A program made the position numbers and the translations under genes. 64,000 bases of DNA from a bacterium (GTDB taxonomy: Bacteria > Patescibacteriota > Minisyncoccia > Phycocordibacterales > JAGLPS01): contig JAUYHB010000024.1 in the NCBI GenBank assembly GCA_030690305.1, positions 260-64,259 on the forward strand. Direction: 5' to 3'. Each line of letters opens with the position of its first letter. Position 1 is the stretch's first letter. The notes under the pieces are model-generated. The model was given only the letters and a program-made list of their open reading frames with translations, was not told the DNA's origin and searched no databases. Of this stretch, positions 2,342 through 58,165 are shown in pieces.

Positions 2342-3184
2342 ATGAAATCACGGGGGAAACATGGCACTGCCACTCAATTTAAAGGGCGCACAAAACAGAC
2401 AACCTCTCCGAAGTTCCGTGAGCGGAACCTCGATAATTTCAAACTGTTGGTTGCTTACCCCGCTTTTCAGGAGGAGGTGTGTAAAATCCAGGCGGAACTC
2501 GAAATCAAAGCCGGTGGTTTTTCCACAACCAAAGAAGCTGAGGAGTGGAATAAACGAGTCATTAAAAAGACAGACATTGTATGGAAACACTATAGTGAGC
2601 TCGTAGAAAAAATAAAAACCGATTCAAAAAACAATGGGATTGGTTACCGAATGATGCAACGCCAGCTCGAAATGTTGTACTCTGGGCTTCCCTTCAGTGG
2701 GTTAGAGAGTTATGCGAGCTATCTTATCGGGCGATTTAACTTACCCCAACACTATCAAAGCGCTTTGGTTCTCCACCTTCTATATGGGACCATATCGGCT
2801 CCGGTTCACAATTATAAAACAGAAGTGCCCTCACCGTTGCGGTCCAGGTCACAACCGAGCGGGTTTTCGGAAGTTAGAGCCACTATCTACACACGCCTAA
2901 CAAAAGACGAGCAGAGAGAGTTAATCGCATGGATCGAAAGGATCACAAATGAAAGGACACTTCCTAAATACGAGCCACTTGTCAACATTGACCGTGATCT
3001 AAAAATAAAAGAAGCATACGAGGCATATAAAGAAAATCGCACCGGTGAGCGTGGCACGATAGCCGACCTCGCCGAGGAGTATTTAGGGGATAGGAAGAAA
3101 GCTAACCAAATAAACGCCATTTTACGAGATCTCAGTAAAATTCAAAAAAGCCGATTTGAAAAAGTGAGAAAAAAGCGGTCATAG
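2342..3184 (+). CDS. hypothetical protein, 280 aa, no recognisable motif; partner gene of the helicase-nuclease
   Basis: Long ORF 47 nt downstream of the helicase on the same strand. No catalytic motifs recognised by eye. Confidence 0.5.
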   Translation: MKSRGKHGTATQFKGRTKQTTSPKFRERNLDNFKLLVAYPAFQEEVCKIQAELEIKAGGFSTTKEAEEWNKRVIKKTDIVWKHYSELVEKIKTDSKNNGIGYRMMQRQLEMLYSGLPFSGLESYASYLIGRFNLPQHYQSALVLHLLYGTISAPVHNYKTEVPSPLRSRSQPSGFSEVRATIYTRLTKDEQRELIAWIERITNERTLPKYEPLVNIDRDLKIKEAYEAYKENRTGERGTIADLAEEYLGDRKKANQINAILRDLSKIQKSRFEKVRKKRS

Positions 3185-3296: not shown

Positions 3297-3484
3297 TTGT
3301 ATGATTTCCCCACAGTCCAAAACAGATAAAGAAAGTACCGCTCTCTCTTTTGACGATTTCAAAAAGTCGTTAGGGCCGAGGGCGGCTAAGTACACCGACG
3401 CACAGATCGAGGTGATGCGGCGTATTTGTGATGGCATTGCAGATGCCTGTTTTAATACTTGGCTTCAAGATAGAAAAGCGCATA

Positions 3485-5212
3485 ATGATGTTATACAACA
3501 TGAATCGTCAAACGCTTAGAGCAACAAAAAACTGCGTTGGCCAATGTCGTGTAAGCTCTCAGAAACAACTGCAGGAGGGTGATAGTTTAGATGTCCAAGA
3601 AGCCAGTATTCGCAGATACGCCGAAGTGAAAGGCTGGAACATTGTTCCTAATAACAATGTTTGGAAGACAGCTATCTCTGGGCGAAAAACGGAGCGCGAC
3701 GACTTTGAGGAAATACTGGCCTACATAAAATCTCACCCGGGCACTGTTGACTACTACGTCTTCCGTTCCATCGATCGCGCAACCCGAGCAGGTAGCGGCG
3801 AGTTACAACGCATGAAAATGGAACTCGCTAAGTGTGGCGTGCAGATGGTAGACACTTACGGCATCATTCAACCATCAGTAAATACACTTTCTGATCTTGA
3901 CTTCGAATACGCATGGAGCAGGTTTTCACCGAGCGAGGTAACAGAGGGTGTCTTTGCTACCACCGCCAATCAAGAAGTCACGACGATCCTCACTCGAATG
4001 ATTGGCCAGTCAATCCGTAATACCCAAAAAGGATACCGCACCCGCCGTCCAACTGACGGGTATCTTAATCAGAAAGTATTTGATGAGTTCGGTAAAAAGA
4101 AGTACATCCAAGTACCAGACCCAAAGCGTGCTAAGTTCCGCATCGATATGTTTGAGTTGCGAGCCCAAGGACTAAGTGATGAGGGGTGTGTGAGGCGGAT
4201 CAATGCAAGCGGCTATCGATCGCCAATCTACAACAAATGGAATGACGCTCACGACAAAATAATCGGGAGACGGGGCGGTAAACCGATGACTATCAAACAA
4301 TTTCAACGCGATATTCAAAACACCATTTACGCAGGGGTACTGTGCGAGAAGTGGACATATTACAAGCCAGTTCGGGCACAATACCCGGGACTGGTGAGTA
4401 TCGAGCTGTGGAACCGTGCCAACCGAGGCAAGATCGCAATTATGGAAGCTGCCGACGGTTCTCTCGAGATCGTTAAGGGTAATCGGTCAGCAACAAGCGG
4501 AACGAGATTAAAAAACAACCCTCTCTTTTCATACAAATTTATTTCCTGTCCGCACTGTGGTAAGCCAATGCTCGGGAGCTCACCACGAGGCAAGATGGGA
4601 AAGCCGCACCCAACTTACCACTGCGCACGAAAGCACAAGTACTTCGGCGTGCCGAAACAAGTATTTGAGGATGCTATAAAAAAGTATATTCGTAGCTTGA
4701 AGTTCAACCCTGACTTGTTAGTAGGACTTGAGGCAACGTTTATGGACAAATTCCGTAAACGTGAGCAAGAGATCGTTCGAGCTTCAGGGCACATCCACCA
4801 GAGCATCGCAGACCTTGAGAGTGAACAGGCCATGAAGCTAGAAGCATACACAGCGAGTAAGAGCGCAGTCATACGGGATATGCTTGAAAAGGAGATCGAA
4901 GGCCTAGAGAAGCAAATCAAGTCTGCCGGTAAGGAGCGCCTCAAAATACAAATAACTCGAGATGACATCAAGTCATTCATGCGGGAGGCAAAAATGATTA
5001 TGGAACACCCAGCACAAATACTCCTAAACCAAAAGGATATAAGGGTTCAAAGGGAATTATTCGGACTGGTATTTGAAACTATGCCGACCTACGTCGAAAT
5101 ACTTAGTGGAACACCTAAATTATCCCTAGCTTTCAGGCTTTCTTCGGACTTTGTGCCCGATAAAAACCAACTGGTGACCCCACGGGGAATCGAACCCCGA
5201 TTACTGCCTTGA
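3485..5212 (+). CDS. large serine recombinase (resolvase/invertase catalytic domain, recombinase domain and zinc ribbon)
   Basis: 'CRVSSQKQ...DSLDVQEASIRRY' with catalytic Ser; 'YVFRSIDRATRAG' (DRLxR-like); C-terminal 'CPHCGKPM...YHCARK' zinc ribbon. The exact start is uncertain (ORF opens at 3428). The last 13 codons are antisense to tRNA-Glu. Confidence 0.85.
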   Translation: MMLYNMNRQTLRATKNCVGQCRVSSQKQLQEGDSLDVQEASIRRYAEVKGWNIVPNNNVWKTAISGRKTERDDFEEILAYIKSHPGTVDYYVFRSIDRATRAGSGELQRMKMELAKCGVQMVDTYGIIQPSVNTLSDLDFEYAWSRFSPSEVTEGVFATTANQEVTTILTRMIGQSIRNTQKGYRTRRPTDGYLNQKVFDEFGKKKYIQVPDPKRAKFRIDMFELRAQGLSDEGCVRRINASGYRSPIYNKWNDAHDKIIGRRGGKPMTIKQFQRDIQNTIYAGVLCEKWTYYKPVRAQYPGLVSIELWNRANRGKIAIMEAADGSLEIVKGNRSATSGTRLKNNPLFSYKFISCPHCGKPMLGSSPRGKMGKPHPTYHCARKHKYFGVPKQVFEDAIKKYIRSLKFNPDLLVGLEATFMDKFRKREQEIVRASGHIHQSIADLESEQAMKLEAYTASKSAVIRDMLEKEIEGLEKQIKSAGKERLKIQITRDDIKSFMREAKMIMEHPAQILLNQKDIRVQRELFGLVFETMPTYVEILSGTPKLSLAFRLSSDFVPDKNQLVTPRGIEPRLLP

Positions 5213-5247
5213 GAAGGCAATGTCCTAACCGTTAGACGATAGGGCCG
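5172..5247 (-). tRNA. tRNA-Glu (anticodon CTC)
   Basis: Minus-strand sequence GGCCCTATCGTCTAACGGTTAGGACATTGCCTTCTCAAGGCAGTAATCGGGGTTCGATTCCCCGTGGGGTCACCA. Cloverleaf with T-stem CGGGG/CCCCG, loop TTCTCAA, Glu-type D-loop and encoded CCA. Confidence 0.85.
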
Positions 5248-12697: not shown

Positions 12698-12847
12698 AAC
12701 TCACTTTCCAAAAATCTTACGGGACCTCTCCCCCCAGTTGGAGCGAGCAACCCCTTTTTCAGAGACTAGCGAGTGCGACGGCACGAGCTCGAGGAATTTT
12801 CTAGTAAGAAAATATCCGTGCTCTGAAGAAGGGATTGTGAACGATTT
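12698..12847. repeat. copy R1 of a dispersed intergenic repeat family (about 150 bp) containing the palindrome gGAATTTTCTAGTAAGAAAATATCc
   Basis: About 85% identical over about 150 bp to the reverse complement of 58020-58165. Partial matches at 46156-46250, 20934-21025 and 36781-36870. Confidence 0.7.
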
Positions 12848-13315
12848 TTATTTGATTTTCAGAATTTTGTATCGAACGGCGCCTTCGGGAGTTTCAAAGG
12901 AAAAAGTTTCTCCTTTCTTTTTTCCTATAATCGCTTTGCCGAACGGAGATTTCATGGATATTTTCGCGGCGGAAATGTCTGCTTCTTCCGAGCCGACAAT
13001 TGTATACACAAGTTCCCCCTTTCCCCCTTCGCGGGAAACCGTCACAACAGAGCCTACCGAAACTACGTCACCGTGGGCGCCTGAAACAATGTGCGCGGTT
13101 TTAATGAGAGACTCAAGCCGCGTGATTCGATTCTCGGTGTTTGCCTGCATTTCACGCGCTTCATGGTACTCGGCGTTTTCAGACAGGTCTCCGAGAGATT
13201 TTGCGTATTCAAGACTTTCGGCTATTTCTTTGCGTCTGGTCTTTTTGAGGTATTCAAGTTCTTTCTTGAATTCGTCATATTTCTCCTGCGTAAGATATTC
13301 TTTTTCTTCTTTCAT
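12848..13315 (-). CDS. greA: transcription elongation factor GreA
   Basis: 'YLTQEKYDEFKKELEYL...GDLSENAEY' and the FKBP-like C-terminal domain. Confidence 0.9.
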   Translation of the reverse strand: MKEEKEYLTQEKYDEFKKELEYLKKTRRKEIAESLEYAKSLGDLSENAEYHEAREMQANTENRITRLESLIKTAHIVSGAHGDVVSVGSVVTVSREGGKGELVYTIVGSEEADISAAKISMKSPFGKAIIGKKKGETFSFETPEGAVRYKILKIK

Positions 13316-20903: not shown

Positions 20904-20933
20904 GTCTTTTCTTTTAGTTAAAGTGAGAATTTG

Positions 20934-21025
20934 CTTTTCAAAAATCTTGCGGAGTTCGTGGAGAACGAGCAGAGAAAAATTCAGTAGAATTTTATCGTGT
21001 TTTTGAAAAGCAAATATGAGCGGTT
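20934..21025. repeat. intergenic repeat copy A (about 90 bp), paired with 36781-36870
   Basis: About 85% identity to 36781-36870. The 5' end 'ttttcaaaaatcttgcggag' is shared with R1 at 12704. Confidence 0.65.
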
Positions 21026-21026
21026 T

Positions 21027-22040
21027 TTACCGCTTGGCTATAATTGTTTTTTTATACAAATCAAGATGGTTAAGGGCGATTCCGGTTCCTTTGGCAACGC
21101 AGAAAAATGGGTCTTTCGCGAGAATTGCCTTGACCCCGGTCCTGCGGTAGACAAGTTCGGGAAGATTGCGCAGTTGGGATGTTCCGCCCGTCATAATGAT
21201 TCCTCTGTCGATAATGTCTGAGGACAGCTCCGGTGGAGTTTCCTGCAAAACATTTTTAACGGCACGAACGATTTCTTGCAGTTCCTTGTTTATGGCCTTA
21301 ACCACTTCGTTTGTTTTCACTTCTATTGAACGGGGAAGGCCTGAAACGAAATCACGTCCTTTTATGGTAGCCGTCAGTTCCTCATCAAGAGGAAGCGCGG
21401 AACCGATTTTGATTTTTATTTCTTCCGCGGTTCGGTCACCGATAGCAAGATTGAAGGCTTTTTTGATGTAATCGGCAATGGCATGATCAATTCTATCCCC
21501 GGCAATTTTTACGGAAGTAGACGCAACGATGCCCCCCAAAGAAATGACAGCGACGTCAGTTGTTCCGCCACCGACATCCACCACCATGTGCCCCGCCGCT
21601 TCGTGAATTGGTATTCCCGCCCCTATCGCGGCAAGGATCGGTTCTTTAACAACATAGGCGTTCCGCGCGCCGGCTTTAATCGCGGCCTCAATAACCGCGC
21701 GCCGTTCCGTTGACGTTACCCCGGCGGGCACAGACACCAACACCTCGGGCTTTATAAAACTCCACCTACCGAGAACCTTGCTGATAAAATAGCGCAGCAT
21801 CGCTTCGGTGACACGATAATCGGCAATTACTCCGTCTTTCATCGGTCTGTAAGCGATAATGCTTTCCGGAGTTTTTCCTATCATTTCTTTCGCTTCCGTT
21901 CCGACGGCAAGAATTTTATTGTCTTCTTCGGATACGGCAACCACGGAGGGCTCATTTAGGACAACACCCTTCCCCGGCACATACACGAGCGTGTTCGCCG
22001 TGCCGAGGTCTATTCCGAGTTTTCGAGAAAATAGTCCCAT
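21027..22040 (-). CDS. second MreB/Mbl-like actin homolog
   Basis: 'LGIDLGTANTLVYVPGKGVVLNEPSVVAV', a paralog of the mreB at 16124. Confidence 0.85.
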   Translation of the reverse strand: MGLFSRKLGIDLGTANTLVYVPGKGVVLNEPSVVAVSEEDNKILAVGTEAKEMIGKTPESIIAYRPMKDGVIADYRVTEAMLRYFISKVLGRWSFIKPEVLVSVPAGVTSTERRAVIEAAIKAGARNAYVVKEPILAAIGAGIPIHEAAGHMVVDVGGGTTDVAVISLGGIVASTSVKIAGDRIDHAIADYIKKAFNLAIGDRTAEEIKIKIGSALPLDEELTATIKGRDFVSGLPRSIEVKTNEVVKAINKELQEIVRAVKNVLQETPPELSSDIIDRGIIMTGGTSQLRNLPELVYRRTGVKAILAKDPFFCVAKGTGIALNHLDLYKKTIIAKR

Positions 22041-36641: not shown

Positions 36642-36780
36642 ATAAACCTCCTTTCGTGGAAGTTACGATTTTAAAGAAGAATCATTTTCTTGCCACACAT
36701 TATATAAAAAGACCAAAAGACGCAAGAAAGGGATAGCTTTTCAAAAATATTTCCCTCAAGCCGTTTGAGCGAAAATTTAC

Positions 36781-36870
36781 TTTTCCAAAATCTTACGGAG
36801 CTCGTTGAGGGCGAGTAGAGAAAAATTCAGAAGAATTTTATCGTGTTTTGGAAAAGTGAATTTGAGCGGG
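36781..36870. repeat. intergenic repeat copy B (about 90 bp), paired with 20934-21025
   Basis: About 85% identity to copy A. Overlaps the spurious 63-aa ORF 36777..36968. Confidence 0.65.
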
Positions 36871-36873
36871 TCT

Positions 36874-37371
36874 TTAAGGCTGGAACAATTCTTCGGGCAA
36901 AAAACGGACGGAGGATACCTCGGGAAATTGTTTTGCCGTAGCTTCAATTTGAAACCACAAAATCCCAACCCGGCATGAGCCGCCCCCTGTTTTGTTTTCG
37001 GTATCGGAAAAAGTAAGTGTGAGAAGACCGTTTTTAAGTTCGGTACTTTTCAATTCCAGACCGGGTAAGGGATATTCGGTCATGAGGCCTTGCTTCTTTT
37101 CTGCTTCAGTCAGCTCACCTTTCAAAAGCAGGTTGATGGTGTCTTCTATCGGCATCGTACTGTTCTCAATCTTCCGTTCAACGCTTTGCAAACCGTTTTG
37201 AGAACATAATATGTTTCCCGTTTCGTCTTTATCCGCTTTCGGATTGTAATAAAAAAGTTGGACAGCACGGCCGACATCTTCTTTGTGCAGCAATAATGGC
37301 ACGAAATACAACGATGATACGACAAGAAAAGAGAGAATAACAAAAAAGATAAGAGATTGTTTACTCATGCC
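36874..37371 (-). CDS. GerMN domain-containing exported protein
   Basis: TM/signal anchor plus GerM-like beta-rich domain ('LTLTFSDTENKTGGGSCRVGILWFQIEAT'). Confidence 0.55.
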   Translation of the reverse strand, partial: GMSKQSLIFFVILSFLVVSSLYFVPLLLHKEDVGRAVQLFYYNPKADKDETGNILCSQNGLQSVERKIENSTMPIEDTINLLLKGELTEAEKKQGLMTEYPLPGLELKSTELKNGLLTLTFSDTENKTGGGSCRVGILWFQIEATAKQFPEVSSVRFLPEELFQP

Positions 37372-38605: not shown

Positions 38606-39511
38606 CTAATCGAAAAGGTTGATGAGATATTTATCTATTTCGCGCTGGTCGAGGTCGTAAAAATATTTATTTTCATCATGAAGTTTCGTCGCAAGTGTTA
38701 CACCCACAAACCGCCAGTGCCACGGTTCAAATTGGTAATACAAATTATTTTCGGAGTATGAAAGTACGAAACCGTATTTGTAAGCGTTTTGGGTCAGCCA
38801 TATATATGCGGCAGTATTTTTGAACGTATTAAAACTTGCCCCTAAATCAGGAGTTGTGAAATCAACCGTTGTTCCAAGTTGATGCTCCGAATATCCTTGG
38901 TCGGCGGAAAACTGATTCGCTCCGGACCCGTACGTCACTTTGTAATTAGACTTAAGAGAAGATTGTTCCGCAAAAGACCGATATCCCGAAATGATTTGAA
39001 GCGGGACGGAGTTTGCTTTGGCATCATTTAAAAGTTTCGCAAGATAGAGCCATACGCTTGTCTGAATTGAAATCGTTTTTCCGTTGCGATACGCGTATTC
39101 CGAATTCGTAATGTCAGTGAGGGTAGCGGGGATATAGTTTTCGTTAAGAAAGTAAACTTTTGAATATTTTTTTAGAAGTTCCGGGTCGGTCATGCTCAGC
39201 TTTTGAAGTGTGCCGACAGTACCCGTAATACTTTTAAGCTGAAAATCGAAGTAGTCGTTTTTCCCCTGCTCGACCCTAAGCGCTTCAGCCAAGTTCGTAT
39301 TTTCATTTTGCGCTTGGGCAAAACTCTCCTGCAGTTCGGAAATTTGTGCTTTAAATGCGGCGGTATCCGAAACCAGCTGGCTTTTTGTAGCCGTTAGTTG
39401 TTTTGCCATTGAAAAATAGACGTATACGCTTCCTCCAAGCAAGATAAGCAGAATTGCGACAGTGGCCTGAAGTGGTGTAAAAGGTTTGGATTGGAAGAAG
39501 ACGGCTTTCAT
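38606..39511 (-). CDS. D-alanyl-D-alanine carboxypeptidase, peptidase M15B (VanY-like)
   Basis: 'ISGYRS...SEHQLGTTVDF...EPWHWRFVG'. Confidence 0.75.
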   Translation of the reverse strand: MKAVFFQSKPFTPLQATVAILLILLGGSVYVYFSMAKQLTATKSQLVSDTAAFKAQISELQESFAQAQNENTNLAEALRVEQGKNDYFDFQLKSITGTVGTLQKLSMTDPELLKKYSKVYFLNENYIPATLTDITNSEYAYRNGKTISIQTSVWLYLAKLLNDAKANSVPLQIISGYRSFAEQSSLKSNYKVTYGSGANQFSADQGYSEHQLGTTVDFTTPDLGASFNTFKNTAAYIWLTQNAYKYGFVLSYSENNLYYQFEPWHWRFVGVTLATKLHDENKYFYDLDQREIDKYLINLFD

Positions 39512-39533
39512 AGGAAAAAATTGTACCACAACA

Positions 39534-40069: not shown

Positions 40070-40185
40070 CGGACACCTCCCAAAAAAATGGTTAAGAACA
40101 GCAACAATTCCTCAATTTCTAGTAAGAAAGATAGCACAAAAAAACTGAGAAGTCAAGCATCCTCCGAAAGGCTGCGAGGAGAAAC

Positions 40186-40312
40186 TTTATTTTGATTTTT
40201 TGCGGGAAGCTCTTTCCGCAAGCATCAGTCTCTTTATCGCAAGACGCTTCTTTGTCTTGGGGGAATGTTTTGATTTTCTTTTCGGACTAAGGAATCCGCC
40301 TCTTTTTGCCAT
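40186..40312 (-). CDS. 41-aa highly basic small protein (possible ribosomal or nucleic-acid-binding)
   Basis: 'MAKRGGFLSPKRKSKHSPKTKKRLAIKRLMLAERASRKKSK'. Below the ORF-track length cut-off. Confidence 0.3.
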
Positions 40313-40504
40313 ATAAATAAGTAGTTAATGAATAGTCGACTAATTCTACACCGATAAGAAAATTAAACAACCTTGAATATTCCTCCCCTTCTGGTATGAA
40401 GTGAGAACTACATTAAGAGATTTAAAATGTAAAAATTAAATTGTATATAAAAGAAAACCACCTGCAAATTTAAGGTGATTTCCTTACATTCGAGGTGGTT
40501 TAGG

Positions 40505-40672
40505 CTAGAACGCAAAACTTAATGTGCAAAGTCTGAGACCGCGGCGAGCAAGCGCTCGGTCAACAATGCCACAAATTCTTGTTTGTACACTTTTTTTCTT
40601 GAGTTGTTCACTTGTTAAAACACGTGAACATCTTTGAAGAACTTTTTTCAGAACACCATTCACCTGATTCAT
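40505..40672 (-). CDS. 55-aa small protein with sigma region-4-like HTH resemblance
   Basis: 'LTSEQLKKKSVQTRICGIVDRALARRGLR'. Terminator hairpin aaccacct...aggtggtt lies just downstream. Confidence 0.3.
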   Translation of the reverse strand: MNQVNGVLKKVLQRCSRVLTSEQLKKKSVQTRICGIVDRALARRGLRLCTLSFAF

Positions 40673-40760
40673 GGCTGCATCTCCAGTAAAGGGTTAGGGT
40701 TTCTGGTTCAACCAGTCTAAGCCTTATTGTACACCGTAATACAATATTTGTCAATATCTA

Positions 40761-40779
40761 GCTCCCCCGGGAGGATTCG
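40761..40779 (-). repeat. partial copy 2 of the tRNA-Asn 3' end (T-loop to discriminator), att-site-like
   Basis: 19/19 identical to 41125-41143. Its copy of the 41122-40943 unit spans 40921-40761 and is closed by a terminator hairpin at about 40880-40905. Confidence 0.7.
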
Positions 40780-40921
40780 GTCACAGGTTCTTGCTTCGCA
40801 GACCTGCGACCCCGACTCGGCGCTTCATCCTGCCCCGCAGGCGCGCCTCCGTCTTTCGAACCCCCTAACCGTGGAAGTTGGAAATACAAAAACGCCCGTG
40901 AAGGGCGTCTTGATTTTCAAA

Positions 40922-40940
40922 GCTCCCCCGGGAGGATTCG
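40922..40940 (-). repeat. partial copy 1 of the tRNA-Asn 3' end, att-site-like
   Basis: 19/19 identical to the tRNA 3' end. Both copies also share two further flanking nt (agctcccccgggaggattcgg). Confidence 0.7.
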
Positions 40941-41122
40941 GCTACACGTCTTATCTCGCCGTCGCTCGGTAAACTCGCAGCCCGCCCCTCGCGGTTTTGT
41001 CTGCTGACAAAACATCGCTGCGGTCTTCGAATCCTCACGAACGCACAACAATGTGCGTTCTCCGTTTGGAAAACCTAAACGATAAAAAAGACCCTGCGTG
41101 GAGCAAGGTCTTTTTTATTCGT

Positions 41123-41197
41123 TGGCTCCCCCGGGAGGATTCGAACCTCCGACCAATCGATTAACAGTCGATTGCTCTACCGCTGAGCTACAGGGGA
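41123..41197 (-). tRNA. tRNA-Asn (anticodon GTT)
   Basis: TCCCCTGTAGCTCAGCGGTAGAGCAATCGACTGTTAATCGATTGGTCGGAGGTTCGAATCCTCCCGGGGGAGCCA. Terminator hairpin immediately 3' (41089-41120). Confidence 0.9.
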
Positions 41198-41289
41198 ATG
41201 TAGTTATATTATTCCGCTCTGTTCTATGATTGCAAATTTTTATTCTTAGCAATCTCCTTACAGTGCGATCTCCTTACAGGAGCTGCACA

Positions 41290-41367
41290 CCCTTTGAGAT
41301 ATTTTACTTCGTTCCTCATAAAATATCTCAAAGGGTCTTGCGAAGCTCCAAGTCTTCACTTCTCACT
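41290..41367. repeat. perfect 17-bp-stem hairpin plus a 34-bp module (copy R4) shared with 46156-46189
   Basis: ccctttgagatatttta...taaaatatctcaaaggg. 'ggtcttgcgaagctccaagtcttcacttctcact' is the reverse complement of 46156-46189 with one mismatch. Confidence 0.6.
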
Positions 41368-41429
41368 CCACCGCCAAGCTACAGGGGAATAATAAAGACT
41401 ATACTAGCAAAAAATCGCTATCCTGCAAT

Positions 41430-42191
41430 CTACTCTCTTATTCTCCAGCCCTTGGCAAAAAGACGTTCTACAAGCACGGAAAGACCGATAATCAGAAAAA
41501 GGGTCATGAGCATGCCGAACGTCTGATTGGCTTCGCTGATACCAACCATTGAAAACCGGATACCATCCGCAAAATAGAAAAACGGATTCCATAAAGCAAT
41601 AACGTGCAAATTTTGCGGAAGCATTGAGATTGAGTAGAAAACACCTCCGAGAAAAGAAAGGGGCGTGATAATGAATGTGTTCCATACGCTTAACTGTTCG
41701 AATCCGCCCGCCTGAAGACCAGCAAGAATTCCCAATAGCGAGAAAATTGCAGACACACCGATAAGGTAGAAAAGGAAAAAGCCAAAATGTTCCATCTGTG
41801 CCACACCAAACAAAACGGCAATGAAAAGCACCCCCACACCAACCAAAATGCCGCGAACGACTCCGCTTAAAGTAAACCCAATTACCATTTCAAGATGGGA
41901 AAGAGGAGCAACAAGTATTTCTTGGATATTGCGCGTCCAACGGCCGAAATAAACTGCGGAAGAAGTGCTTCCAAAAGCGGCCGCGACAACATTCATCATC
42001 AGAATCCCCGGCAACACAAAGGAAATGTAAGAAACACCGCCGATAAGGTCTATCTTCCCGCCAACTATCGAACCGAAAATGAAAATGTAGAGGAAGGCGG
42101 AAATCAGAGGGGTAACAATCGTTTGTGTGATGACCCTAAACGTTCGCTCAACCTCTCTGCGTATCAATGTGTAAAATCCTACCCAGTTCAT
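41430..42191 (-). CDS. ABC-2 type transporter permease
   Basis: Six TM helices, ABC-2 family pattern. Confidence 0.8.
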   Translation of the reverse strand: MNWVGFYTLIRREVERTFRVITQTIVTPLISAFLYIFIFGSIVGGKIDLIGGVSYISFVLPGILMMNVVAAAFGSTSSAVYFGRWTRNIQEILVAPLSHLEMVIGFTLSGVVRGILVGVGVLFIAVLFGVAQMEHFGFFLFYLIGVSAIFSLLGILAGLQAGGFEQLSVWNTFIITPLSFLGGVFYSISMLPQNLHVIALWNPFFYFADGIRFSMVGISEANQTFGMLMTLFLIIGLSVLVERLFAKGWRIRE

Positions 42192-46093: not shown

Positions 46094-46155
46094 AAAAATT
46101 GTTTGTTTAAGTACAGAAAATTATATCACAGGGAAACCGTAAAAAAGAAAAAGAG

Positions 46156-46250
46156 AGTGAGAAGCGAAGACTTGGAGCTTCGCAAGACCGGAGGAGCGCT
46201 TCCGCTCCGAGGTGGGGTCGCGAAATTTTCTAGTAAGAAAATATTCGTGA
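46156..46250. repeat. repeat copy R3: 34-bp module, GC hairpin and the family palindrome gaaattttctagtaagaaaatatt
   Basis: Shares the palindrome with R1 and R2 and the 34-bp module with 41334-41367. Sits upstream of a 'tgtgatataat' -10 for the aldolase gene. Confidence 0.6.
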
Positions 46251-49519: not shown

Positions 49520-49715
49520 TTGATGAGGACAGTATAGCAAAAACCCGCTCTAATTTCCTTTTGCAAAACACGATAAAATCCTACTGGATTTTTCTCTGCT
49601 CGCCTTCTTCAGGCTCCGCAAGATTTTTTAAAAGGAAATTCTCGCTCAAACGTCCTGAAGGAAAAGCTAAAGAAAAACAAAAAACCCCGCTTGCGCGGGG
49701 TGTTTTTGTTTATGC

Positions 49716-57588: not shown

Positions 57589-58017
57589 ATGCGCGTGAAA
57601 ATTGATGTTGAAGAAATGTCAAAAGCAACATGCATACCTGCCGAGACAATCAGGCGGGCACTGACCCTGAGAAGACCGACATTGGAAATAGGGGAAAAGC
57701 GGTATCCTGAATCTTTATTTGATTATATGGTTATCGCTTTTGAAAAGTCACCTTCCCCAAATTCTCTTCGGAAGATAATTTGTCAGTACTTTCTTGCAGT
57801 TAAATTTCAGCGGAAATACCCGACCCAAGCGGAGTTTAAAATGATGGAAAGATTTTTCGAAACAGTAGTTAAAGACGAAAATCCTTCCGAAGCGTTGCGT
57901 ATATGGAAACGCATGCCAATGAGATTCCGAAACGGGGTACATGAGATTTTTATCGCGTATTTCTATTCCCAACGCAATAAATTTGTACGCGAGCATGCAT
58001 ATCGTTTTCGCAAATGA
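57589..58017 (+). CDS. hypothetical protein
   Basis: ORF only. Confidence 0.4.
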   Translation: MRVKIDVEEMSKATCIPAETIRRALTLRRPTLEIGEKRYPESLFDYMVIAFEKSPSPNSLRKIICQYFLAVKFQRKYPTQAEFKMMERFFETVVKDENPSEALRIWKRMPMRFRNGVHEIFIAYFYSQRNKFVREHAYRFRK

Positions 58018-58019
58018 AA

Positions 58020-58165
58020 ACTGTTCGCAATCTCTTTTTCAAAGTACGGATATTTTCTTACTAGAAAATTCCTCGAGTTCGCGCCAGTCGCGCTCACTAG
58101 TCTCTGAAAAAAAGATTGTTCACTTCAACGACCCGAGGGGAAAGGGGTCTGAAGAAAAAAGCCCT
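58020..58165. repeat. repeat copy R2 (inverted relative to R1), between convergent genes
   Basis: Reverse complement is about 85% identical to 12698-12847, including the palindrome. Confidence 0.7.

Follow-up and report, generated by a model that had tools for sequence, protein, structure and literature searches.

In the 64-kb chromosomal stretch analyzed here (contig JAUYHB010000024.1, referred to as the window at its full length), an intact gene for tRNA-Asn(GTT) is followed on its 3′ side by 2 short gene-less units in tandem, U1 and U2, each of which closes with a perfect repeat of the tRNA 3′ end. We put the probability at roughly 0.55 that these units are stacked site-specific recombination scars at the 3′ end of tRNA-Asn, similar to the mini-units flanked by attachment (att) sites that are known as microCIMEs. 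An earlier note on this DNA had already pointed to two tandem units of approximately 160 to 200 bp downstream of tRNA-Asn, and core-to-core spacings of 161 and 203 bp bear this out.

The tRNA gene is canonical and encodes its CCA. Because ARAGORN and Rfam (RF00005, 73.1 bits) both place it on the minus strand (41197 to 41123), the displaced copies of its 3′ end lie downstream of it. The block GCTCCCCCGGGAGGATTCG occurs exactly 3 times in the window, at 40761, 40922, and 41125, and always in one orientation, as the earlier note had stated. The core of this block is a 19-mer, CGAATCCTCCCGGGGGAGC in minus-strand sense, that runs from C56 in the T-loop through the first C of CCA. Only 0.04 exact core copies are expected by chance from shuffled sequences, against the 3 observed. 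There are no further copies with up to 3 mismatches in the 64 kb, and a scan that allowed up to 6 mismatches, made to delimit an older island, returned nothing core-like in the window. The 2 displaced copies are identical to each other over 21 nt (AGCTCCCCCGGGAGGATTCGG, which reads C-core-T in minus-strand sense), 1 nt less than the note had given; 19 of these nucleotides match the tRNA, and the similarity between the unit ends reaches 29 nt with 3 mismatches. The intact gene stands at one end of the array and the 3′-end fragments are confined to its 3′ side. The chromosomal junctions around the core are GGAGGTT-core-CAACGAAT, GTGTAGC-core-TTTGAAAA, and CTGTGAC-core-TAGATATT. The parts of the locus are the following:

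41123..41197, minus strand: tRNA-Asn(GTT), intact, CCA encoded, called by ARAGORN and Rfam; putative integration target and attL-side equivalent
41125..41143, minus strand: core copy 0 (CGAATCCTCCCGGGGGAGC) inside tRNA-Asn, from T-loop C56 to the first C of CCA
40921..41122, minus strand: U1, 202 nt (203 bp core to core), consisting of terminator 1, a body of 54.6% GC, and core copy 1
41082..41118, minus strand: intrinsic terminator 1, starting 5 nt past the tRNA; 16-bp stem with a T run and an A run, hence bidirectional
41028..41039, minus strand: within U1, the 5′ part of the core in inverted form, CGTGAGGATTCG against CGAATCCTCCCG; 9 contiguous Watson-Crick pairs, 11/12 match
40922..40940, minus strand: core copy 1, an exact repeat; displaced tRNA 3′ end followed by T instead of CA
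40760..40920, minus strand: U2, 161 nt, consisting of terminator 2, a body of 61.5% GC, and core copy 2
40889..40911, minus strand: intrinsic terminator 2, a 9-bp stem followed by TTTTTGTATTT
40761..40779, minus strand: core copy 2, an exact repeat; most distal displaced tRNA 3′ end, followed by T, with a promoter 6 nt further on
40726..40754, minus strand: near-consensus sigma-70-type promoter directly after U2, TTGACA-17-TACAAT (11/12 matches), reading into a 55-aa open reading frame (ORF) at 40505-40672

Along the sense of the tRNA, the order is thus tRNA, terminator 1, body 1, core, terminator 2, body 2, core, promoter, and 55-aa ORF, and on the minus strand both units are laid out as an intrinsic terminator, a GC-rich body full of palindromes, and the 19-mer. 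The GC content of the bodies compares with 45.4% for the window. Between the repeats there are 142 to 184 bp without genes, and the ORFs that overlap U1 and U2 are short and without family matches. The terminator hairpin that the earlier note had seen in each unit (41118-41082 and 40911-40889) matches the consensus on the minus strand in both cases, and the 2 terminators differ from each other. An intrinsic terminator follows within 5 to 12 nt of the tRNA core copy and of the U1 core copy; only the most distal copy lacks one.

Apart from their ends, U1 and U2 do not resemble each other. Local alignment of the bodies scores 17, where dinucleotide shuffles average 16.8, global alignment has a z-score of 1.9, and the likeness is limited to approximately 10 nt beside the core, which is where a common recombinase would bind. 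This indicates separate acquisitions and not diverged tandem duplicates. A T-loop-like motif, GGNTTCGAA(A)GACNG, is indeed present in both units, as the note had reported, but with a 1-nt indel, and as a likeness of U1 to U2 it does not exceed chance. The note had also considered a duplicated mini-element. In one form of this, a single old att remnant would have been duplicated in tandem and would have diverged, its 21-nt end being kept by gene conversion from the tRNA. We regard such a duplication as very unlikely: beyond the terminal 21 to 29 nt the units are no more alike than shuffled sequences, neither bodies nor terminators are significantly similar, and conversion from the tRNA would not keep the flanking C and T, which the tRNA lacks. 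In its favor are the tandem arrangement, common orientation, similar size, and identical order of parts (terminator, body, core) of the units, and the fact that the identity between U1 and U2 runs 1 nt past the tRNA homology on each side.

The units were also analyzed as possible RNA genes. At default and 85% thresholds ARAGORN calls tRNA-Asn only, with no tRNA or tmRNA in U1 or U2, and Rfam at E ≤ 10 over 40760-41122 yields no tRNA, tmRNA, ribozyme, or other credible match; the reading of the units as bona fide tRNA or tmRNA genes, which the note had named as one way in which it could fail, is thus not borne out. Several more specific candidates were rejected. By eye, a degenerate tRNA-Asn with an 80-nt T-loop insertion can be drawn into each unit (CGAA on both sides, a D-like CGG(T)AGA, and, in U1, an anticodon-like hairpin). 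We consider this pareidolia, given the negative ARAGORN and Rfam results, an acceptor-like pairing at chance level, and 5′ parts of the units that score against the tRNA at or below the shuffle mean. Hammerhead and other ribozymes, RNA of the signal recognition particle type, and group II intron domain V have no Rfam match at E ≤ 10. A guide RNA, a sequence similar to a primer-binding site, or an RNA antisense to the tRNA on the plus strand would be without promoter and effector genes, and the complementarity ends before CCA. For a TnpB/IscB guide or another guide-plus-scaffold RNA there is no such gene in the window, no Rfam match, and no promoter. Finally, an invertible segment between the inverted repeats of U1 was discarded because a contig (L003) crosses the right repeat and the interior unbranched.

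The bodies do fold better than shuffled sequences, with z-scores for U1 and U2 of −4.9 and −2.8 on the plus strand and −3.4 and −2.1 on the minus strand. Since the plus strand has the same or a larger excess, this reflects Watson-Crick palindromes in the DNA and not a strand-specific RNA fold. The inverted core copy of U1, situated 87 nt from core copy 1, is equalled in only 2/1000 shuffles, whereas the one in U2 requires two G-U pairs and is not significant (equalled in 392/1000 shuffles). These data bear on the idea that U1 and U2 are functional structured RNAs, made by read-through from tRNA-Asn, whose 3′ ends mimic the T-stem and acceptor 3′ strand and that might engage RNase P, RNase Z, the CCA-adding enzyme, or some other factor that binds tRNA, either as substrates or as decoys. 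In the minus-strand minimum free energy folds of both units the core lies in a long helix that closes a two-hairpin junction, and the 5′ UUCC..CGG segment pairs with CCG..GGGAG; moreover, GC-rich bodies (55-62% versus 45%) with a folding excess, a 21-nt end that is perfectly conserved next to a remainder that is not, and ends in G-C-U, which resemble CCA-less tRNA precursors, would all suit such RNAs. However, the acceptor-like pairing of the UUCC..CGG segment with the core is at chance level (p = 0.32 in U1 and 0.09 in U2), the core helix is significant in U1 only, and the opposite strand shows at least the same folding excess. Neither unit is preceded by a promoter, each has a strong terminator at its 5′ end, tRNA, tmRNA, and Rfam searches are negative even at relaxed thresholds, and homologues are absent from all collections searched. 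We thus consider a role as RNAs quite unlikely.

Proposed serial integration at the tRNA 3′ end

Stacked recombination scars could have arisen as follows. A circular element would bring an attP in which the tRNA block CGAATCCTCCCGGGGGAGC is placed between a P arm and a terminator, and this attP would recombine with the identical block in the chromosome, most likely by means of a tyrosine integrase. The tRNA would retain its 5′ two-thirds and gain the 3′ end of the element together with the terminator of the element, while the original tRNA 3′ end would be pushed to the far side of the element. At least two rounds would be required, U2 being inserted first and U1 second, into the re-formed gene. 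The present 161 to 203 bp would correspond to about an attP with its arms, left after deletion of the interior or, alternatively, carried by cargo-less hitchhikers that were mobilised in trans or in cis by an integrase located elsewhere. An attP with arms would be the smallest piece able to recombine, which would explain why both units have a similar size.

The repeat is the stretch from the T-loop to the 3′ end that is typical of tRNA att sites and used by integrases that target tRNA genes. The position of the terminators agrees with this scheme. One is expected after each proximal core copy because an incoming attP must supply a terminator to restore the gene, a prediction that random duplication does not make. 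The identity block (C56 to C74) covers the 3′ part of the tRNA, and the gene is intact at 73 bits, as expected if it was restored after integration. T-loop and 3′-end sublocations of tRNA integration sites were reportedly distinguished by Williams in 2002.

Copies upstream of the tRNA and assembly support

The region upstream of tRNA-Asn contains a feature that the earlier note overlooked, a 25-nt copy of the 5′ end of the tRNA (41390 to 41366) that is 88% identical (22/25). It is located 191 bp upstream of the true 5′ end, and none of 500 shuffles reaches its score (p < 0.002). The interval between this fragment and tRNA-Asn, U0, also holds the likely promoter of the tRNA and includes the following features:

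41366..41390, minus strand: partial tRNA-Asn 5′ end at the start of U0, covering 2 leader nucleotides, the acceptor stem's 5′ strand, and the D arm; 22/25 identical
41334..41368, minus strand: 35-nt patch, 34/35 identical to 46155-46189 and inverted, abutting the 5′ fragment with a GAG overlap
41289..41336, no strand assigned: perfect 18-bp inverted repeat with a 12-nt loop in U0; T run on neither strand

The segment from which the patch derives (46155-46189) is a terminator-like hairpin between rpmG and a DeoC-like gene; hairpin and T run are on the minus strand, and a GC-rich hairpin cluster follows (46190-46225). The inverted repeat at 41289-41336 does not form a terminator on either strand and is adjoined by two 15-nt direct repeats with AAGGAG (41249-41279), all of these repeats (41249-41336) being situated between the tRNA 5′ fragment and the tRNA promoter. 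The junction TTATTATTCCCCTGTAGCT-CAGCGGTAGAGC would be diagnostic for a haplotype without U0.

With partial self-copies flanking the tRNA on both sides, the locus could be a patchwork of short segmental copies produced by template switching or illegitimate recombination at a fragile tRNA gene, without any site-specific recombinase. The 5′ fragment, the 35-nt piece from 46.2 kb, and both 3′ fragments would then be filler copies left by repair or replication. The 3-nt GAG overlap that joins the 5′ fragment to a 34/35 inverted copy of a sequence 4.8 kb away is in line with this explanation, as are the abundance of short dispersed intergenic repeats in this genome and the failure to find an integrase or a parent element in the collections searched. 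We nevertheless consider it rather unlikely. Both 3′ fragments share the boundaries C56 and C74, as would be expected of a site-specific process but not of random switching, and each proximal copy is directly followed by a terminator. In addition, neither body has a source copy in the window, and size and architecture agree with known att-flanked mini-elements.

The structure of the locus was reproduced in other assemblies. Contigs assembled independently from two samples match it at 100% identity over U2, the junction of U1 with U2, the 3′ part of U1 as far as 41019, and U0 with the 5′ part of the tRNA, leaving 41020-41151 as the sole segment without an independent assembly. All short-read assemblies of the same organism break within this 500-bp stretch, at 40867, 41019, 41152, or 41377, so that the locus accounts for assembly breaks in this organism. 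One of these contigs (NCBI JAXMJZ010000025.1) ends at 41377, the last base of a 14-nt block common to the 5′ fragment and the tRNA, and another contig ends at 36819, inside a dispersed repeat, which indicates that breaks in these assemblies track repeats. The breaks at the locus are compatible with presence/absence variation in the population, and repeats alone would explain them too. They are also, together with the presence of 41020-41151 in one assembly only, what would speak for a collapsed or chimeric repeat, an artefact that the earlier note had allowed for. Such an origin is highly improbable considering that two samples reproduce most of the locus, including U2, the U1/U2 junction, part of U1, and U0 with the tRNA 5′ part, and collapse cannot have generated the units because U1 and U2 differ from each other.

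Relatives, recombinases, and surrounding genes

We searched for related units using as unit end a core that is not preceded by T. Among 185,579 species genomes there were 5 matches, 2 of them variant tRNAs and 3 chance matches in coding sequence, and none was unit-like. The 2.9 M viral contigs of IMG/VR gave one phage tRNA-Gln, with nothing added when the "not T" requirement was dropped, and the JGI metagenomes (241 M records) gave one chance match and one degenerate tRNA-Asn-like fragment. The latter, at the end of contig Ga0272448_1068262 (L017), is a degenerate copy of a variant tRNA-Asn with T-loop TCCGAAT, and its anticodon loop is short of 2 nt. Its end is GAGC-T without CCA, and ARAGORN does not call it; possibly it represents a tRNA-Asn fragment that was displaced, or else a pseudogene, in a different uncultured bacterium. 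Neither U1 nor U2 has a blastn match in phage and plasmid collections. A spurious 81-aa ORF across U2 had a single match among 1.84 billion protein representatives, an unrelated repetitive protein without a counterpart of the core motif. Because the searches yielded no relatives, U1 versus U2 is the sole comparison at hand.

The lineage itself is poorly sampled: the closest homologue of the permease encoded next to the locus is 76% identical, and the next ones 65% or less. In the three relatives fetched (76%, 64%, and 63% identity) tRNA-Asn is absent downstream of the permease. In the closest of them (Ga0620839_007384 from JGI, L011, positions 1787-2077) a convergent ORF with an internal tandem repeat of approximately 96 bp replaces the tRNA-Asn region.

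Recombinase genes were sought around the units as well. A cognate integrase is absent from the units and from the 5 kb around them, the interval from 36 to 46 kb (where tRNA-Asn directly adjoins U1) has neither recombinase nor conjugation genes, and genes for an integrase, a transposase, TnpB, or Cas proteins are likewise absent from the vicinity of the locus. In another part of the window, a large serine recombinase of 594 aa with Resolvase, Recombinase, and Zn_ribbon_recom domains (3428-5212, plus strand) converges on tRNA-Glu(CTC) (5172-5246, minus strand) and overlaps the 3′ end of this tRNA by 41 nt. Upstream of it are genes (48-2294 and 2342-3184) for a ResIII/DEAD helicase and for a protein of 280 aa that matches Arm-DNA-binding weakly. 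The tRNA-Glu locus has the appearance of an integrated element, with a recombinase gene that extends across the att junction and a second end beyond the window; tRNA-targeted integration thus occurs in this genome.

Several observations weigh against serial integration at tRNA-Asn. No integrase, excisionase, or pseudogene of either is present in or near the units, searches of genomes, metagenomes, viral contigs, phages, and plasmids turned up no parent element or attP-like sequence, and no related genome with an empty or an occupied site was obtained, the closest ones lacking tRNA-Asn at this position. An ancestral gene that ended in the most distal copy would have been devoid of an encoded CCA (GAGC-T) as well as of a terminator, yet CCA is encoded in both tRNA genes of the window. 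For att arms or for decaying DNA, a GC content of 55-62%, as in the bodies, is unusual in a genome of 45% GC. The microCIMEs of Streptococcus adjoin an ICE (integrative and conjugative element) or an IME (integrative and mobilizable element), and there is none here. Lastly, integration at the 3′ end does not account for the 5′ fragment or for the patch from 46.2 kb, both of which show that other duplication processes act at this locus. Serial integration and deletion at a tRNA hot spot, which the earlier note had proposed, nevertheless fits the anatomy best. Because no integrase, parent element, or homologous unit was found in any collection, the recombinase, the order of events, and any remaining mobility are inferred and not demonstrated.

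An unlikely alternative to scars is that U1 and U2 are the smallest self-contained integrative form, made of attP arms and a terminator, and still excise and re-insert, or serve as landing pads, through a distant integrase. If so, the palindromes would be binding sites for a recombinase or an architectural protein, or a folded single-strand site that mimics the tRNA duplex, and this would be the first such system in Patescibacteria. The k-mers that span the core junctions would be diagnostic for whether such minimal units still move. A more remote variant would be RNAs that mimic the tRNA 3′ end and are freed from read-through transcripts.

The window as a whole is core chromosome of a Patescibacteria (candidate phyla radiation) metagenome-assembled genome, with genes for RpoC, DnaG, a sigma-70 factor, enolase, penicillin-binding proteins, and a class II aminoacyl-tRNA synthetase. 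A conserved gene is missing from the interval between a VanY gene (38606-39529) and the ABC permease gene (41430-42191). The 1.9 kb that the note had called ORF-poor is a stretch without conserved genes, though shorter, at approximately 1.4 to 1.6 kb (39797 or 40070 to 41429). NCBI annotates nothing between a 90-aa protein and the permease, which carry the consecutive accessions MDP2705383 and MDP2705384. Two very basic small ORFs on the minus strand, of 41 aa (40187-40312) and 55 aa (40505-40672), have no confident Pfam or PHROG match. The 55-aa ORF has the near-consensus promoter before it and a hairpin (40450-40500) after it. None of the 55-, 41-, and 90-aa ORFs, which the note had thought possible remnants of degraded cargo, matches a Pfam family, and the 90-aa ORF has only a weak PHROG match without function (E 6e-4). 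Among 5.8 billion proteins, the 55-aa ORF has no homologue and the 90-aa ORF matches only itself.

The dispersed intergenic repeat mentioned above forms a family of 5 copies in 64 kb, approximately 105 to 126 nt long and 82-85% identical. Start codons, among them those of enolase and of an Asp/Asn-type tRNA synthetase, directly follow the copies, which have a Shine-Dalgarno-like sequence, GAGGGAAAAG, at their end. They contain a hairpin, AAAATCC-TACT-GGATTTT, for which a second subfamily has ATTTTCT-TAC-TAGAAAAT, resembling covariation. There is no Rfam match at gathering score, and the family could be a shared promoter/5′ untranslated region module or similar to miniature inverted-repeat transposable elements. 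Its members are:

49539-49664: dispersed repeat copy
36750-36875: dispersed repeat copy
58011-58129: dispersed repeat copy
12737-12854: dispersed repeat copy
20922-21028: dispersed repeat copy
46218-46249: partial copy

Comparison with known att-flanked elements

The forked-hairpin attP of CTX-phi and the attC sites of integrons are recombination sites formed by folded single strands. As in these sites, a single strand of U1 could fold to rebuild 11/12 bp of the duplex target between the core and its inverted copy 87 nt away, and the units are about the size of cassettes or attC sites and stand in tandem arrays. Unlike them, the units have no XerCD/dif or IntI signatures and no R″/R′ GTTRRRY boxes, and the inverted repeat of U2 is not significant, so that we see a mere resemblance. 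An integron attC was rejected since the inverted repeat is GAGGATTCG/CGAATCCTC and not AAC...GTT (R″ RYYYAAC, R′ GTTRRRY), with no IntI integrase in the window.

The microCIMEs of Streptococcus salivarius, the smallest cis-mobilizable elements, are decayed derivatives of ICEs and IMEs, gene-less and 130 to 220 bp long (PMC7563491). Direct repeats that originate in the target's 3′ end serve as their att sites, and the microCIMEs themselves form tandem stacks at the 3′ side of this gene, with two in a row reported (PMC7563491). Similarly, the units analyzed here are gene-less, measure 161 and 203 bp, stand in tandem, and carry repeats of 19 to 21 nt, 19 of which equal the 3′ end of their target. 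The targets of the microCIMEs, in contrast, are the protein genes rpmG, rpsI, fda, and rplL, where they are placed distal to an ICE, a decayed ICE (dICE), or an IME, whereas here the target is a tRNA gene in Patescibacteria and no integrase-bearing element adjoins it. As to sequence kinship with a full element, searches of phages, plasmids, viral contigs, species genomes, and metagenomes returned nothing similar to U1 or U2, in a lineage that is poorly sampled.

Tyrosine integrases insert genomic islands and prophages into asn and other tRNA genes. Direct repeats of 17 to 20 bp, which take in the 3′ portion of the tRNA, flank the islands in asn tRNA genes (GIE492, ICEKp1, and the HPI family), and there are documented cases of tandem accretion (PMC4891358). 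The locus described here shares with these tyrosine-integrase islands a repeat of the 3′ portion (19 bp) and an intact gene at one end with a fragment at the other. The islands differ in that they span 10 to 200 kb and encode their own integrase, as opposed to 142 to 184 bp of gene-less DNA between the repeats. The integration of elements is known to leave partial tRNA genes behind (van der Gulik et al. 2023, PMC9897764). In those cases, as in ours, a complete and a partial tRNA copy stand in direct orientation, an arrangement that marks an integration event. The cases of van der Gulik et al. enclose 9 to 23 kb of element DNA, and the fragments found here, at 19 nt, are too short for a tRNA gene to be called from them by mistake.

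The genomes of Patescibacteria are tiny, and few mobile elements have been described from them. With two stacked att scars at tRNA-Asn and a serine-recombinase element at tRNA-Glu, these 64 kb suggest that in this lineage elements integrate at tRNA genes and the inserts erode rapidly. No new mechanism is called for, as the pattern agrees with known att-site biology and with the published microCIMEs: it is most likely a fairly ordinary type of scar, here in an under-sampled phylum.

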